DNA of 64,000 nt. Source: Candidatus Gottesmanbacteria bacterium (GTDB taxonomy: Bacteria; Patescibacteriota; Microgenomatia; 2-02-FULL-39-11). Under the pieces are notes generated by a model, which saw only the letters and a program-made list of their open reading frames with translations, was not told the origin of the DNA and did no database searches. The stretch's first letter is position 1. Every line of letters begins with the position of its first letter. Both the position numbers and the translations under genes were made by a program. Location of the stretch: the NCBI GenBank assembly GCA_016186795.1, contig JACPKY010000002.1:797892-861891 (forward strand), read 5' to 3'. Below, one piece after another: positions 1 to 57,565 of this stretch.

Positions 1-1660
1 TAAGTTCATATAACCTGTCACTATCAATAATAATTTCTCCATTTTCTACATCACTTCCACTATTTGTTTGATCGACACTCTTTCCATCAATATATACTTT
101 CACCTCTCCTTGTATATTCTCGTTTGGTGGTCGCATGACTAAAAAGACCTTCTCAGCAGTGAAATGGTATTCAAGAATTGCATCTTTCCCGGCCATTGCG
201 TACTCATCAGTTATTTCCCAATTCCCTCCCAATGTAAAAGTATTTAAAGGAATAGAAGATGAGGAAGTAAAGAGTTTTTGTGTACCATTGGCAATATGAC
301 CTAAAGGATAGTAGTACTCCATTCGAGCCGCGCCGAGATACGTTTCTGGTGAAATACGTTGCCTTGGAGTCTCATCTGGCCTTTGTGAATAATTATTGGA
401 AACATCCTCGCCTCGCTCTTTCAAAAGTTTTTGTATCATCTCTTCCGTTTTTTGATATTCTCCTTCACCAAAATGGGTATAGCGAATTTTTCCTTTACTA
501 TCGATGAGATACTTGGCCGGCCAGTACCTGTTTTTATACGCTTTCCATGTCGCATAATTGTTATCCTGCATAATGGGATAAGTAAGGCCAAAATCTTTAA
601 TCGCTTTCTCAACATTTTCCGCATCTTTCTCAAATTCAAACTCAGGAGTATGGACGCCAATAATCACTAAACCATTGTCTTTATATTTCTCATACCAGTC
701 CTTAAGATATGGAAGTGTGCGAATACAGTTGATGCATGTGTACGTCCAAAAGTCTATAAGAACGACATTTCCTCGAAGCTCTCGAAGAGTGAAAGGTTCG
801 CTATTGAACCATTTCCCGCCAGCAATTAACTCAGGTGCGGTTCCAATGTTTTCTTCAATGACATCACTCATCGGTTTTCCAGATTCTATTTGGATACTCT
901 CTTGTGAGGATTTTGGTTGTAAATTTTTCAGTGCATTTTGGATTACAGAATTTTCTTCAAATCGTGTCAACCCTACTCCATATTGAGGAAATGTCTCCAG
1001 AATAAACGCTTGGAACGTTCGATCGACATTAAATTGAATACCAATTGCAGTTACAATCATCAATATACCGAAGACTTTTTGGATACGTCCAGTATTTTTT
1101 GTAAGCCATGGCGTCTTTGAGAGAAGTTCTCTCCCCCCGTACGTAATACCAAGCATAGGAATGGCAGTTCCCATGGAAAATGCGAGTGTTATAAAAAAAG
1201 CCTGGGCAGTTACTGATCCAGTCAAAGCAAGTGATATGACTGATGCAAGGATGGGGCCCACACAGGGAGTCCAAACAAGACCAAGGCTTATTCCGATTAC
1301 AATTCCTCCAATAAATCCGGTCTGCTCTCTACCTATTGACACTACACCACTCAACCTCGAAAAAAGTTGTTCGAGAAGTACCTGAAATTTCGGAATAAGA
1401 AGACTAAGTCCAAATGAAAAAACAACAACAACAGAAACGGTGCGAAGAGTATCTGCTGGTATTCCTGTTGCACGTACGATAAGAGAAAGAAAAAGAGTAA
1501 AGAAGGTAAAACTTCCTATAAAGCCAGCAACTATTCCAAGTGGCCTTTTTTTATCACCTGAAACCGTCCCAGAGAGAACAATTGGCAAAACGGGTAGAAT
1601 GCAGGGAGAAAGAATGGTTACAAAACCTGCAATGAAGGCGAAAATAAGAAGTAGGATCAC
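1..1660 (-). CDS. CcdA/DsbD-type transmembrane thiol-disulfide transporter fused to a C-terminal TlpA-like thioredoxin domain plus a further C-terminal domain (DipZ-like). Partial: the 3' end runs off the window start.
   Basis: Manual minus-strand translation from a GTG at 1660-1658. It reads (M)ILLLIFAFIAGFVTILSPCILPVLP, then LVWTPCVGPILAS (the two CcdA Cys motifs), then REL RGNVVLIDFWTYTCINCIRTLPYL (a redoxin CxxC). The frame is open to position 1. It is absent from the ORF track because it has no in-window stop. Confidence 0.6.
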   Translation of the reverse strand, partial: MILLLIFAFIAGFVTILSPCILPVLPIVLSGTVSGDKKRPLGIVAGFIGSFTFFTLFLSLIVRATGIPADTLRTVSVVVVFSFGLSLLIPKFQVLLEQLFSRLSGVVSIGREQTGFIGGIVIGISLGLVWTPCVGPILASVISLALTGSVTAQAFFITLAFSMGTAIPMLGITYGGRELLSKTPWLTKNTGRIQKVFGILMIVTAIGIQFNVDRTFQAFILETFPQYGVGLTRFEENSVIQNALKNLQPKSSQESIQIESGKPMSDVIEENIGTAPELIAGGKWFNSEPFTLRELRGNVVLIDFWTYTCINCIRTLPYLKDWYEKYKDNGLVIIGVHTPEFEFEKDAENVEKAIKDFGLTYPIMQDNNYATWKAYKNRYWPAKYLIDSKGKIRYTHFGEGEYQKTEEMIQKLLKERGEDVSNNYSQRPDETPRQRISPETYLGAARMEYYYPLGHIANGTQKLFTSSSSIPLNTFTLGGNWEITDEYAMAGKDAILEYHFTAEKVFLVMRPPNENIQGEVKVYIDGKSVDQTNSGSDVENGEIIIDSDRLYEL

Positions 1661-48365: not shown

Positions 48366-48653
48366 TCATCCAGAGAGAAGAGCTTCGGCAAATTCAGTAC
48401 AGGCATTGATCCCAAGTCTTCCATCAACTAACATCTGCTTCTTTGCTCGATTCCAACCTTTTAATTGCTTTTCTCGCTTTGCTGCTTCACTTTCTTGAGC
48501 GTATTTCTCACAATACACTATCTTGATTTGAGAAAACTTTTTGGTAAAAAAAGAATTTTTATTTTTGTGCTGTGCAATTCTTTTTACTAAATCATTGGTG
48601 ATCCCGATGTAAAAAGTTTTCTCATCGCAAAGAAGTATATATACAAACCACAT
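48366..48653 (-). CDS. GIY-YIG nuclease family protein (small, stand-alone)
   Basis: WFVYILLC...TFYIGITNDLVKRIAQH. Confidence 0.8.
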   Translation of the reverse strand: MWFVYILLCDEKTFYIGITNDLVKRIAQHKNKNSFFTKKFSQIKIVYCEKYAQESEAAKREKQLKGWNRAKKQMLVDGRLGINACTEFAEALLSG

Positions 48654-48963
48654 TGTATTAGTATTTTATAATATGTGGCCTGCATTGAGCTTGCCGAAGT
48701 GCTCGCTAAATGGGACGATTTTAGACAGACGAATTGGGATGAAATTATAGAATATCCTGAAGAAACACTAAGACAAACAAAATATCTGCTTTCGGGTATA
48801 TCTGCCTAAATAACTAACTTATGGAATAATTCTTTTTCCGGTAGACTTTTTAGTTAGTCCTATCATTTCTACTAAATATCCCCTGAGCGATAACATTCAA
48901 AACTATATAATTTTATTTCCTATTCCAGATCTTCAATTTTGATCACACTTACTTTTACTTTTA

Positions 48964-49545
48964 TTAACTAATAATTTGAGCACCACAACTAGGACAAACG
49001 TTAGATCCAATAAGTATGCCTATACTTGTTCCACATTCGCTACAAACTATATTCGGATGGACTTCGTTTATTGATTCTGAAGGCGAAGGCGATGGAGAGA
49101 AAGATTTAGAGGGGGAAACAGAGGCATTAGCAATTCCAGAGGCTGTGGTAACTGCAGTTCCTAGAGTCATATTATTAATCGTTTCATTAGCGAACTTTTT
49201 TAACTCAAGTTTAAAATCCTCAAGATTGATCTGGTTCTGTTGGAGTTTATCTAGTTTGTTGCTCATATCTTCTAACCGAATTACCTCTCGATTATCTGGA
49301 AACATTTTCTCTACCATTTCAAACCAATTATCTCTTGCCTCAATAATTCTTTTCCTTTTATTTGGGTCATTACCGAATCTTTCGTGACAATTGGGACAAA
49401 GCGGAGCCGCGTTACTTATATCATTTGATCCCCCTTCTTTTTCAGGTTTAATATGATGAACTTCAATATCAAGACTTTGACAAAAGCAACATTTAAACAT
49501 TGCTTTTTTTCTTATTACTTTTTTTGTTTCTTCTGTAAAATCCAT
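48964..49545 (-). CDS. HNH endonuclease with a C-terminal zinc ribbon
   Basis: CCFCQS...HHIKPEKEGGSNDISNAAPLCPNCHE; C-terminal CSECG...CPSCG. Confidence 0.7.
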   Translation of the reverse strand: MDFTEETKKVIRKKAMFKCCFCQSLDIEVHHIKPEKEGGSNDISNAAPLCPNCHERFGNDPNKRKRIIEARDNWFEMVEKMFPDNREVIRLEDMSNKLDKLQQNQINLEDFKLELKKFANETINNMTLGTAVTTASGIANASVSPSKSFSPSPSPSESINEVHPNIVCSECGTSIGILIGSNVCPSCGAQIIS

Positions 49546-49556
49546 ATTGTTGTCAA

Positions 49557-49802
49557 CTACGAGTTCTTAATTAATTCTCTCATCAGCGCAAAATCCGAAT
49601 CGCTGAACCATACGGTATTAAGAGACCATCGAATTGCTCTACCAATTTTACCTCTAGGGTGGACATATCCCTTACGATATAACTGTTTGACGATTGCTCC
49701 TTCTGATTTTCCCGATACCGTTGTCTCTTTATTGGGACTGTCTGCGATTTTAAGCAGCAGACGTATCTGATTGAGTGGCATAAAAGTGATTTTTTCTCTC
49801 AT
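49557..49802 (-). CDS. Small hypothetical protein
   Basis: 81-aa ORF between the HNH and GIY-YIG genes. Confidence 0.3.
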   Translation of the reverse strand: MREKITFMPLNQIRLLLKIADSPNKETTVSGKSEGAIVKQLYRKGYVHPRGKIGRAIRWSLNTVWFSDSDFALMRELIKNS

Positions 49803-50017
49803 ATTTATTACCTATTCCAATATAATTTATATATTATATCATACTACAGCTTCTATTGCAAGCACTTCATACGTAATAATCTACATCCACGACATCCATT
49901 TAGTGAAATGTTATAATGCTAACAAACAGAGCGAGAAAATACCTTTGGCGTGGTCTTGAACCCTGAAAGGGGGGCTTCTCGTAAGGGGACGGTTCTCAGC
50001 TACTGTTTTGATAAATT

Positions 50018-50284
50018 CTACTTTTTCCAAGGAGACTTTTTGAAATAATCCTTCAACATTTTTTCTATCTCCTTCTTACCATTTCCTCCTTTTAAATAGA
50101 CTTCTCTTCTTTTTGCATCTGATTCTATCAAAAATGCTTCGTAATAAATAAGTGTAAGAGGAAGACGATGTTTAGTAGAAAATACAAATCCGTTTTTATG
50201 CTTCTTAATTCTTGTTTTTAAATCCTGGGCATATCCTGTATATAATTTCCCATCTTCACAATGGAGAATATAAACGTAATACAC
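50018..50284 (-). CDS. GIY-YIG nuclease family protein (second paralog)
   Basis: YYVYILHC...KLYTGYAQDLKTRIKKH. Followed upstream by the hairpin GCCCCGTTTAACGGGGC and a T run. Confidence 0.8.
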   Translation of the reverse strand: MYYVYILHCEDGKLYTGYAQDLKTRIKKHKNGFVFSTKHRLPLTLIYYEAFLIESDAKRREVYLKGGNGKKEIEKMLKDYFKKSPWKK

Positions 50285-50376
50285 ATAATAAGTATAACAA
50301 TAATAAAGCCCCGTTAAACGGGGCTATATTTTTCAGTAATGGCTGTGCGCTTAGCGCACTATCGCCACGCTGAGCG

Positions 50377-50645
50377 TGGCTCCCCCGCGTGGATTCGAAC
50401 CACGAACCTTCTTCTTACAGAAATCCTCTTGTTACCAAAAGGGCTGGACTATCTTATTACCGACTAGGTCGGTATCAGGTATATAGTCTCTACACATTTA
50501 TTCCGACAATACGTCGGAAACTTAGCTCGGGATTACCCCACATAAAATGTAGGAGTCCCCCGAATTAGCCTGATTTTCGATACGCATTGCTGCGTAAAGC
50601 TGCCAATAAAGACAGGAAGCCGCTCTACCGTTGAGCTACAGGGGA
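50377..50645 (-). tRNA. tRNA-Asn(GUU), interrupted in the anticodon loop by a 194-nt intron
   Basis: Exon 1 (50645-50612) is TCCCCTG-TA-GCTC-AACGGTA-GAGC-G-GCTTC-CUGU. Exon 2 (50417-50380) is UAA-GAAGA-AGGTT-CGTGG-TTCGAAT-CCACG-CGGGGGA-G, with an encoded CCA at 50379-50377. The acceptor pairs 7 of 7 and the anticodon is G34-U35|U36. Confidence 0.65.
50418..50611 (-). other. Group I self-splicing intron (no ORF)
   Basis: 5' exon ends in U and the intron ends in G. The IGS GCAG pairs with exon CUGU. P2 is UACGCA-GCAA-UGCGUA. P7 is GACUA/UAGUC, with R-like GUAGAGACUA and S-like AAGAUAGUCC. P8 is ACCGAC-cuag-GUCGGU. P3 is GGCU/AGCC. Confidence 0.6.
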
Positions 50646-51344
50646 ATGTAAATGTACGGATGGCATTTTAGCACCAAACAACGCAAAAATCCACCCTATA
50701 ATTCGCCTATGAATTTCAGAGTCATTCACTCGAATTGCAAATACACCATATTGGTGAATATTTTTCCGAATTTTTTTAGAATCTTTTTTGTCGGAGGCAA
50801 TATATGTTTTATAAAAATTTTTCCTATCAATACCAGTTAATTGCGACCAAAATAATTTTGCTTTTTTCTCATCTCTTCTTTCATGCAACCATATAGCTCC
50901 TCTATATTTAGAATTTTCTATATCACAATATTTTCGAAACCATTTCATCATAAACCTAATAAGGGTCGGATTTGCATTTGAAAAGCCTATTTGACCATCT
51001 GTCTTATCACCTTCTCCTGCATACAAAGCAACTCCAGCTATAAACTCTTCTCTACTATTTAATTGTCCAATATCCTGTTTAGCTCTTTGGTGAATACTAG
51101 CAATTTTTTGATGTCGCCTGCGCCGTTTATTATCTGCTGCAATTATTGATCCACGACGCTGACCTAAATTTCTCATAGAGATAAGCCTTTGTTTTTGAAC
51201 CACTGAAAGTTCAATATCTTTACACCAACGACTAATTGTATCTTTGGAAACATGAATTTTTTGCAGAATTTCCCCATAAGATAGGCCTTTTTTACGTAAC
51301 GATTGCGCAATATTTTTCTCATTTAACTTTCCGAAATATCCCAT
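50625..51344 (-). CDS. HTH-containing protein with a LAGLIDADG-like motif (possible homing-endonuclease-like)
   Basis: N-terminal HTH (LSYGEILQKIHVSKDTISRWCKDI), then IAGVALYAGEGDK resembling LAGLIDADG. The 3' end overlaps the tRNA 5' end by about 20 nt. Confidence 0.3.
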   Translation of the reverse strand: MGYFGKLNEKNIAQSLRKKGLSYGEILQKIHVSKDTISRWCKDIELSVVQKQRLISMRNLGQRRGSIIAADNKRRRRHQKIASIHQRAKQDIGQLNSREEFIAGVALYAGEGDKTDGQIGFSNANPTLIRFMMKWFRKYCDIENSKYRGAIWLHERRDEKKAKLFWSQLTGIDRKNFYKTYIASDKKDSKKIRKNIHQYGVFAIRVNDSEIHRRIIGWIFALFGAKMPSVHLHSPVAQR

Positions 51345-51449
51345 ACTTCTATGCTAATAATCAAACCTACAATTGTCAACTATTCATCTATCTATTCTTT
51401 GTTTGGTTTATGTTAAAATCGTCTCGCTTCTTTCACTCAATTTGACTTA

Positions 51450-56725: not shown

Positions 56726-57565
56726 ATGAATGAAGGAAAAGCAGTTTCTCCGGCAAGTATAAGTTTCATTTTCAAAGTATGTAAAAATAGGCAAGGCGAA
56801 ATCGTAGGTTCAATCGGAGTTGGGGCAACAATTGATAAATCGGTGATGGTTGCGGTAAAAAAATCCACCCAATTGTCTGTGTACTTTAATGGGGAGAGTA
56901 TTTCTTTCCCAACGGTGGAAACTGTAGTCCAAAAACTTACAAAGAATCCTGTTGAAATCTCTGTTACATCAGAGGTCCCACTTGCTTGTGGTTTTGGTGT
57001 AAGCGGTGCATCAAGTATTGCGACAGCCTACGCACTCAATGCTCTCTTTCAATTGGGAAAAGATCCCGATACTCTTGCCAACATCGCACACACGGCCGAA
57101 ATAGAAAACCGTACAGGACTAGGAAGTGTCGCAACTCAGATAACGGGTGGCTTTTTGGTGAAACGCGCTCCGGCAATTCCAGTTGATGCCGTGAAACTCC
57201 CTCTTCTCCACACCCCGTTGTTTGCATTGGTTTTGGAAAAATACGAAACAGCTAAGATTCTCAATGATCAACATAAAACATCCCGTATAAACCGGGCAGC
57301 AGAAAAAGCACTTCGGACAATCACTTCTATTCAAAATCTTGGCATATCGAAGATTCTTGATATAAGTTATGAGTATGCAATAGAGAGCGGAATTTTGGAA
57401 AACTCCGAAGTTCAGCTCGTCATTGAGAAAGTAAAAAGACAGGGAGGGCATGCAACGATGGCAATGATTGGTCATACAGTTTTTAGTACCATTCCCCCAC
57501 CGGACTACTTTGGAGGAAACGTCTATTCACTTCGCATTTCAAAGACAATCGCACATATACTATGA
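56726..57565 (+). CDS. GHMP-family kinase, pantoate kinase (PoK, COG1829)-like
   Basis: GHMP motif PLACGFGVSGASSIATAYAL; about 280 aa. A 4-nt overlap with the next gene. Confidence 0.5.
   Translation: MNEGKAVSPASISFIFKVCKNRQGEIVGSIGVGATIDKSVMVAVKKSTQLSVYFNGESISFPTVETVVQKLTKNPVEISVTSEVPLACGFGVSGASSIATAYALNALFQLGKDPDTLANIAHTAEIENRTGLGSVATQITGGFLVKRAPAIPVDAVKLPLLHTPLFALVLEKYETAKILNDQHKTSRINRAAEKALRTITSIQNLGISKILDISYEYAIESGILENSEVQLVIEKVKRQGGHATMAMIGHTVFSTIPPPDYFGGNVYSLRISKTIAHIL

Follow-up and report, generated by a model that had tools for sequence, protein, structure and literature searches.

Which gene lies on the minus strand between positions 50,645 and 50,377 of the 64,000-nucleotide (nt) stretch of Candidatus Gottesmanbacteria bacterium DNA analysed here (assembly GCA_016186795.1, contig JACPKY010000002.1, positions 797,892 to 861,891; below, the window), and what interrupts it? 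We conclude, with a probability of about 0.9, that the locus is the asparagine transfer RNA gene, tRNA-Asn(GUU), of this bacterium, split between anticodon positions 35 and 36 by a group I ribozyme that is compact (194 nt) and contains no open reading frame (ORF). The same exons and intron had been proposed in an initial annotation of the window, and they are borne out by ARAGORN on the joined exons, by the Rfam model RF00028 and by a P1-P9 structural model in which 57 out of 57 base pairs are canonical in the window sequence. The gene has four parts:

50645-50612, minus strand: tRNA-Asn exon 1, 34 nt (TCCCCTGTAGCTCAACGGTAGAGCGGCTTCCTGT), tRNA positions 1-35, ending in G34 U35; ARAGORN and blastn on the spliced product.
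50611-50418, minus strand: ORF-less group I intron, 194 nt; Rfam RF00028, covariation and minimum free energy (MFE) fold.
50417-50380, minus strand: tRNA-Asn exon 2, 38 nt (TAAGAAGAAGGTTCGTGGTTCGAATCCACGCGGGGGAG), from U36 to G73; ARAGORN and blastn on the spliced product.
50379-50377, minus strand: encoded CCA, directly 3' of exon 2; read from the sequence.

When the exons are joined, ARAGORN calls a tRNA-Asn(gtt) of 75 nt, and removal of the intron leaves a canonical cloverleaf with a 7-nt anticodon loop, CUGUUAA, containing the GUU anticodon. The acceptor stem is complete (7/7 pairs, including one U.G), and the D stem (GCTC/GAGC), the T arm (CGTGG-TTCGAAT-CCACG) and the discriminator G73 can be read from the sequence, as had been described before the present analysis except for the U.G. 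G73 is an identity element for asparaginyl-tRNA synthetase. Among the 25 best full-length blastn matches of the spliced sequence, which are intron-less phage tRNA genes at 75-80% identity, 24 are annotated as tRNA-Asn and none as tRNA-Thr. Such end-to-end alignment to intron-less tRNA genes is a validation logic also used by Nakagawa et al. (2026, PMC13011429). The unspliced locus matched phages in blastn solely over its last 27 nt (tRNA-Asn) and gave no match to plasmids; the phage and plasmid collections contain no relatives of the intron. The splice junction reads ...CUGU|C...CUG|UAAG..., between anticodon positions 35 and 36, with a U at position -1 and a G as the last base of the intron. 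The intron itself was found with RF00028 (Intron_gpI) when 451 nt were searched under lax filters; the match scores 68.6 bits, above the gathering score of 50, with an E value of 1.9e-17, and lies on the minus strand from 50626 to 50425, with the model covered completely (1-253).

The structural model, in which intron position i is window coordinate 50612 - i, comprises the following elements:

50600..50615, minus strand: P1, in which exon CUGU and the first intron base C1 (50615-50611) pair with GGCAG (50604-50600, intron 8-12), the internal guide; U35.G9 wobble at the 5' splice site.
P1 loop, minus strand: UUUAUU, which could pair with the first exon 2 bases UAAG (P10); inspection only.
50582..50595 (intron 17-30), minus strand: P2 hairpin ACGCA-GCAA-UGCGU with a GNRA tetraloop; covariation and MFE fold.
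50569..50574 (intron 38-43), minus strand: 5' strand of P3, AUCAGG; Rfam alignment and covariation.
50527..50563 (intron 49-54 / 80-85), minus strand: P4, UCGGGG/UCCCGA, enclosing P5; Rfam alignment, invariant 38/38.
50554-50536 (intron 58-76), minus strand: P5, 7 base pairs, with J4/5 GAC and J5/4 UAA; Rfam alignment and covariation.
50494..50526 (intron 86-118), minus strand: P6 (GC/GU, 2 base pairs) and the P6a hairpin UUCCGAC-GUAUU-GUCGGAA; covariation.
50484..50490 (intron 122-128), minus strand: 5' strand of P7, G(A)GACUA, inside the conserved GUAGAGACUA; invariant 38/38.
50474..50479 (intron 133-138), minus strand: 3' strand of P3, CCUGAU; Rfam alignment and covariation.
50459..50473 (intron 139-153), minus strand: P8 hairpin ACCGAC-CUA-GUCGGU; covariation and MFE fold.
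50446..50451 (intron 161-166), minus strand: 3' strand of P7, UAGUCC; invariant 38/38.
50425..50442 (intron 170-187), minus strand: P9 hairpin CCUUUUG-GUAA-CAAGAGG with a GNRA tetraloop; covariation.
Intron 188-194, minus strand: 3' tail AUUUCUG, its last base being the terminal G (50418); read from the sequence.

The MFE fold of the intron alone recovers P2, P3, P4, P5, P6a, P8 and P9 and is stabler than all 200 shuffles (z = -3.99), and the core P3-P8 is present in the P3/P7 pseudoknot topology. P7 is the guanosine-binding site of group I introns, and the P7 helix described here is the predicted guanosine-binding helix. Between P7 and the 3' strand of P3 there is only the gap UAUA (intron 129-132), and the P7.1/P7.2 helices of subgroup IA are absent. 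Most elements named earlier held up: the pairing of a guide GCAG with the 5' exon's last bases (P1, CUGU|C with GGCAG, including the U.G at the splice site), the intron-final G at 50418, the GCAA tetraloop of P2, the P7 strands GACUA/UAGUC, the P8 hairpin and the compact intron without an ORF. The exception is P3, for which the initial annotation had proposed GGCU/AGCC: AGCC lies 3' of the second P7 strand, which is the wrong topology, and GGCU is invariant in the 38 related introns described below while its partner varies uncompensated. The true P3 is AUCAGG/CCUGAU (50574-50569 / 50479-50474).

Related introns were collected by scanning metagenomes for a pattern of two core blocks, CTAATTCGGGG and GTAGAGACTNNATACC, separated by a spacer of 45-75 nt, which gave at least 120 loci (compared loci carry numbers beginning with L). 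Splice sites were called from P1 pairing and the anticodon-stem complement, and at least 51 of the listed metagenome loci are tRNA-Asn(GUU) genes split at 35/36, the others being tRNA-Asp(GUC) and tRNA-Tyr(GUA). Where the caller met two candidate sites, some of its 'Tyr' or 'His' calls are a false first candidate within P9; tRNA-His is not claimed as a host, its few calls being probably caller artefacts. A single intron lineage occupies the 35/36 site in loci L083-L202, in Asn(GUU), Asp(GUC; e.g., L100, L123, and L156) and Tyr(GUA; e.g., L126, L160, and L176). Exon 1 of the Asn, Asp and Tyr genes always ends in UGU, paired with a guide ...CAG, and one guide therefore suits several tRNAs with GUN anticodons.

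For the covariation analysis we aligned 38 distinct related tRNA-Asn introns. In this alignment 92.1% of cells are paired; column shuffles give 76.4%, and sliding the partners by 1-3 columns lowers the figure to 30-45%. Two-sided changes occur in 35/57 pairs, and 0/500 shuffles match the observed value on any of five measures. Helices P2, P3, P5, P6a, P8, and P9 covary, while P4, P6, P7 (both strands 38/38), and the splice-site U.G are invariant. In P1 the pairs C-G, U-A, G-C, and U.G are the same in 38/38 introns and the fifth pair covaries (CG 25, GC 8, AU 3, and UG 2). Two-sided changes affect all five pairs of P2 (5/5) and all six of P8 (6/6), compensatory changes are found in 3/6 pairs of P3 (e.g., UA 22 / CG 15), and covariation extends to 6/7 pairs of P5, to 6/6 aligned pairs of P6a (99.5% of cells paired), and to 7/7 pairs of P9 (96.6% of cells paired). 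The sequence 'UG|UAA' at the 3' splice site is invariant. Together with the terminal G, the U.G wobble conserved in 38/38 introns bears out the insertion point after U35 that had been proposed.

Matches obtained with nhmmer include tRNA-Asn loci of Patescibacteria (L003) and Saccharibacteria (L069). A second intron form, of 187-233 nt, sits at the same 35/36 site in L003 (11226-11516), L204 (3707-3966), and L207 (3700-4005), three loci that are syntenic with the window or linked to an ORF described below (ORF239). It carries GCAGAGACUAG and an extra hairpin between P7 and the 3' strand of P3, seen for instance in the 218-nt intron of L003; since this form differs at the same site, two intron forms share one site within the phylum. 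Two contigs, L090 and L135, each contain two split tRNA-Asn genes on opposite strands, a few kilobases apart.

How does the window intron compare with what has been published? With the work of Williams (2020, bioRxiv 10.1101/2020.01.27.920355) the number of classes of bacterial tRNA split by introns rose from 4 to 21, among which are Asn.4Ug, Asp.4Ug and Tyr.4Ug. In 4,934 complete bacterial genomes, Nakagawa et al. (mSystems 2026, PMC13011429) counted 28 introns at 35/36, of which 19 belong to Patescibacteria; in 95 complete genomes of Patescibacteria they report 15 tRNA-Asn(GUU) genes and 3 tRNA-Asp genes split at 35/36 by a group I intron. With the Asn.4Ug class and these 15 cases, the view of the initial annotation that an Asn host would be unusual is outdated; it matches what was in print before 2020. 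According to the same source, the Patescibacteria tRNA-Asn introns self-splice precisely in vitro, a terminal G-to-C change blocks exon ligation, intron lengths range from 184 to 894 nt, 25/28 introns at 35/36 are classed as subgroup IA, and annotation tools produce Thr(UGU) 33/34 miscalls. The window intron belongs to this published and experimentally validated class, which is common in the host phylum. It shares with the Patescibacteria Asn.4Ug introns the tRNA, the anticodon, the 35/36 site, the phylum, the U at -1 and the terminal G, both are ORF-less, its 194 nt fall within the reported range, and the tools fail in the same way, the gene being missed or called Thr(UGU) at 33/34 (PMC13011429). 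Unlike the seed Pam37.Asn.4Ug and the second form in L003, L204, and L207, it has no insert between P7 and the 3' strand of P3. The window genome (protein tag HYW55_05475) does not appear in the examined part of the tables of Nakagawa et al. (2026). The intron brings no biology that Williams (2020) and Nakagawa et al. (2026) had not already described.

Among nine seeds compared, the closest is Wba81.Asp.4Ug of the gpI_bact_tRNA seed alignment (Williams 2020, gpI.sto), with 72% identity and a score of 182 versus 128 or less. The two introns have in common P1 (cuguc...GGCAG), CUAAUUCGGGG, GUGUAGAGACUAUAUACCU, AUAAGAUAGUCC and a compact architecture, whereas the host of Wba81.Asp.4Ug is a tRNA-Asp(GUC) and the sequences of P2, P5, P6a, P8 and P9 differ. 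The subgroup IC3 intron of the Azoarcus pre-tRNA-Ile(CAU) (seed Aol6.Ile2.5Ug, ~205 nt) is likewise tiny, ORF-less and located in the anticodon loop, and it shares with the window intron the GNRA-capped P2 and P9, a short P5, the absence of P5abc and the core sequences AAUUCGG and GUGUAGAGACUA. It is inserted at 36/37 after CAU, its P1 pairs CAU with GUG, and its identity to the window intron is ~61%; its host is a member of the Pseudomonadota and its J7/3 and P3 sequences are different.

From the anatomy, the intron family and the published assays on homologues we infer how the window intron may splice. Three further features, all on the minus strand, bear on its expression:

50625..51344, minus strand: ORF239, 239 amino acids (aa), with an N-terminal helix-turn-helix (HTH) and a putative LAGLIDADG-like C-terminal domain; directly upstream of the tRNA.
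51351..51379, minus strand: promoter-like TTGACA-17-TAGCAT, upstream of ORF239; consensus scan only.
50307..50325, minus strand: AGCCCCGUUUAACGGGGCU, a hairpin resembling an intrinsic terminator, and then UUAUUAUU, both downstream of the tRNA; consensus scan only.

The precursor would be transcribed, possibly jointly with ORF239, and the intron would fold into P1-P9, with CUGU and the first intron base paired to the guide GGCAG and U35 in the U.G wobble. A free guanosine in P7 would then attack after U35, the terminal G (50418) would take over the guanosine site, and the 3'-OH of exon 1 would attack after this G, while P10 (UAAG with UUUA) may help to align the exons. Ligation would give the tRNA loop CU-GUU-AA, RNase P would trim the 5' end, and the CCA would come from the gene. 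The promoter-like site is possibly shared by ORF239 and the tRNA, and the transcript may run from there to the terminator-like hairpin; promoter-like sites in the region are not more numerous than expected from shuffles. A single tRNA-Asn gene is usual in the phylum (PMC13011429), and if the window gene is the sole one of its genome, splicing would be essential for the cell.

A number of points weigh against our reading of the locus. In the spliced tRNA the uppermost pair of the anticodon stem is a mismatch, G27.A43 (window 50618 / 50410), which the initial annotation did not mention. The same mismatch is kept in independent contigs with the anticodon stem GCTTC...GAAGA (L084, L097, L111, L118, L120, L124, L141, and L167), and this recurrence makes it a feature of the lineage rather than damage. 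RF00028 returned nothing when the default Rfam filters were applied in gathering mode, whether to the 64-kb window or to 2 kb, and a run in E-value mode over the whole 64 kb gave no match either. The intron call comes from the lax-filter search, backed by the comparative analysis, and the default Rfam pipeline omits the intron; because the 451-nt search scores 68.6 bits, we regard these misses as failures of the filters and not as absence. P10 is a possible pairing of exon 2 UAAG with intron UUUA, drawn by inspection only, as are the tetraloop-receptor contacts through which the GNRA loops GCAA (P2) and GUAA (P9) probably hold the core together, like those of other small tRNA introns. The architecture looks like that of small IC3 introns such as the Azoarcus one.

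These tool failures have consequences of their own. ARAGORN with default settings reports 0 tRNAs in the window, and the Val(aac) call of its intron mode, which has the right outer coordinates and a wrong intron position, was discarded in favour of the boundaries given by P1 and the terminal G. As both ARAGORN by default and Rfam with default filters miss the locus, ordinary annotation overlooks the tRNA and the intron alike, and introns of this lineage will be systematically undercounted where Rfam is used routinely. A missed tRNA-Asn makes Patescibacteria genomes seem to lack an essential tRNA and lowers their completeness estimates. The practical value of the locus is that of a further tRNA-Asn gene overlooked by ARAGORN default, Rfam default filters and, by report, tRNAscan-SE.

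Is the tRNA really an Asn? Exon 1 ends in ...CUGU and the intron in ...CUG, so that a boundary shifted by 2 nt in the 5' direction, to 33/34, gives the loop CU-UGU-AA of a tRNA-Thr(UGU). The ARAGORN intron search labels many homologous Asn loci Thr(tgt) i(33,..), at 33/34, tFind often does likewise, and the Thr/Asn ambiguity is documented in Nakagawa et al. (2026, PMC13011429). With the Thr boundary, however, the intron would end in C instead of G and U33 would pair with an A in P1, whereas U35 forms the invariant U.G; moreover, the tRNA body, including G73, fits Asn (24/25 best full-length matches, with 0 tRNA-Thr), and the in vitro products of homologues were sequenced with a 35/36 junction (PMC13011429). 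We give the Thr boundary hardly any credence.

Two other explanations accept the intron and differ on whether, or with what help, it splices. In one of them it is a decaying, non-splicing relic in a dead tRNA gene while another tRNA-Asn gene serves the cell, a very unlikely situation in our opinion: the G27.A43 mismatch and the existence of multi-copy cases (the two split genes each on L090 and L135) speak for it, but all core helices are intact, GUAGAGACUA, UAGUCC, UCGGGG/UCCCGA, the U.G pair and the terminal G are the same as in 37 relatives, the CCA and a terminator-like hairpin are present, and identical exon sequences, G27.A43 included, recur in independent contigs. The other holds that a true group I intron needs a protein helper in the cell, with ORF239 as a maturase instead of, or besides, a nuclease. 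LAGLIDADG proteins are classical group I intron maturases in organelles, homologues of ORF239 lie directly upstream of split tRNA-Asn genes in 8/8 tested loci, and co-transcription of ORF239 with the tRNA, a weak point, would fit. Yet among 56 related split tRNA-Asn loci whose upstream sequence covers 750 nt or more, just 9 have a homologue of ORF239. Of these nine copies, two are interrupted by internal stop codons and one more is a mere fragment, and the closest relative by RpoD, L139 (91% identity), has no ORF239, which means that the intron persists without it. Homologous ORF-less introns also self-splice protein-free in vitro (PMC13011429), and we consider dependence on a helper unlikely.

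What, then, is ORF239? An identical protein is deposited as hypothetical protein HYW55_05475 [Candidatus Gottesmanbacteria bacterium], and the family has at least 489 members, none of them functionally annotated; all 11 of the 11 members with a named organism are Patescibacteria. Pfam HTH_23 is found at the N terminus in 39/40 aligned family members. For ORF239 and the 40 aligned members Pfam gave only N-terminal HTH families, the curated LAGLIDADG family not being matched, PHROGs gave only DNA-binding and HTH families for ORF239, and the C-terminal 130 residues of the family are covered by no Pfam or PHROG family. Foldseek on ORF239 returned nothing at E <= 1e-3, merely weak I-DmoI and OmpA-like matches. 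When the family profile was compared with all PDB sequences, I-DmoI was the sole match (E 0.06-0.19), and the family motif FIAG(I/V)ALYAGEG.K aligns, weakly at these E values, to its second LAGLIDADG motif GLYVAEGDKT, which we take to contain the catalytic Glu117. Within 40 family sequences E111 is at least 90% conserved and G104, Y108, G112, and K114 are invariant. The C-terminal domain agrees, at modest scores, with the LAGLIDADG alpha/beta fold in a divergent form.

The position of the gene is its most constant property. All eight homologues with fetchable DNA, among them those of the complete Daviesbacteria genome CP066688 and of a Saccharimonadales metagenome-assembled genome (MAG), lie directly 5' of a split tRNA-Asn, and the same upstream position was seen in 12 further metagenome loci and in the window, while the wider genome context and the intron form vary among these loci. 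Loci with homologues include L204-L212, L111, L141, L148, L152, L154, and L162. Where it could be measured, the gap between ORF and tRNA is 3-59 nt, a single locus being an exception because of an inserted duplication; in three loci the ORF as called runs into the tRNA. In the window genome ORF239 runs 21 nt into the tRNA, ending S-P-V-A-Q-R-stop; an ORF end inside the tRNA was considered as a conserved feature and rejected, and since the stop codon comes 3-33 nt before the tRNA in most relatives, the overlap is incidental. In L205 (3696-3830) an insert of ~110 nt separates the ORF239 homologue from the tRNA-Asn. The first ~20 nt of the tRNA, together with the leader (TTAATATTCCTCGATAGCTC), are directly duplicated at the two flanks of this insert, which resembles a small element that entered the tRNA in its 5' part and duplicated its target.

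The patchy distribution, the decayed copies and the fixed site beside tRNA-Asn fit a selfish free-standing homing endonuclease, and we tentatively suggest that ORF239 may target the tRNA-Asn gene and move together with the ORF-less intron in a bacterial chromosome, a form of collaborative homing, although we consider this somewhat less probable than not. The alternatives are a maturase or a WhiA-like regulatory or DNA-binding role. Compared with described collaborative homing (PMC3984707), ORF239 is on a bacterial chromosome and not in a phage, is known from sequence alone, and could be linked to the tRNA-Asn gene as such and not to its intron. A literature search found no paper describing the ORF239 family. 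If true, homing would run counter to what has been inferred in print, namely that these tRNA introns are for the most part immobile for want of endonuclease genes. As an active homing endonuclease, ORF239 would supply the missing mobility mechanism for the ORF-less tRNA introns of the phylum and would be a chromosomal bacterial example of collaborative homing. The ORF239 family is the lead most worth following, above the intron itself.

The surroundings of the locus are those of a bacterial chromosome. Just upstream, on the minus strand, are dnaG and rpoD, and nearby are genes for an MFS transporter, a zinc-type alcohol dehydrogenase and a PMT_2-family glycosyltransferase. A comparison of RpoD with 185,579 species genomes gave as best relatives a 'Patescibacteria group bacterium', at 70% identity, and a MAG of Roizmanbacteria, and the host is placed within the Patescibacteria (candidate phyla radiation, Microgenomates). 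The gene order rpoD and then an intron-split tRNA-Asn is common to L003, L139, L137, L107, and L141. Small nuclease-type genes are clustered a short way downstream of the tRNA (48366-50284, minus strand):

50284-50018, minus strand: GIY-YIG gene, 88 aa, downstream of the tRNA.
49545-48964, minus strand: HNH endonuclease gene, 193 aa, downstream of the tRNA.
48653-48366, minus strand: small ORF, 95 aa, GIY-YIG-like by eye, downstream of the tRNA.

The GIY-YIG and HNH genes were examined as specific partners of the intron and discarded, GIY-YIG homologues being present in only 4 of the fetched loci and HNH in none. In L097 an ORF of 83 aa, GIY-YIG-like by eye, is immediately upstream of the tRNA-Asn, and the tRNA-Ser of L053 is followed by a GIY-YIG homologue. 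In these genomes there seems to be a tendency for small GIY-YIG genes to lie beside tRNA genes.

No repeat of the tRNA 3' end, the mark of an integrated island, was found in the window. Large serine recombinase genes stand immediately downstream of the split tRNA-Asn, on the opposite strand, in L097 (4495-5994), L207 (3953-5491), and L209 (2507-3771), those of L207 and L209 with Resolvase/Recombinase/Zn_ribbon_recom domains and that of L097 judged by eye. Their adjoining the split gene suggests that the 3' end of tRNA-Asn serves as an integration site for mobile elements. Elsewhere in the window, a GHMP-family kinase gene (56726-57565, plus strand) adjoins an archaeal-type phosphopantothenate synthetase gene (PF02006 PPS_PS in L001, 1111-1869), a pair that resembles the archaeal pantoate kinase/phosphopantothenate synthetase route to coenzyme A, here in a bacterial genome.

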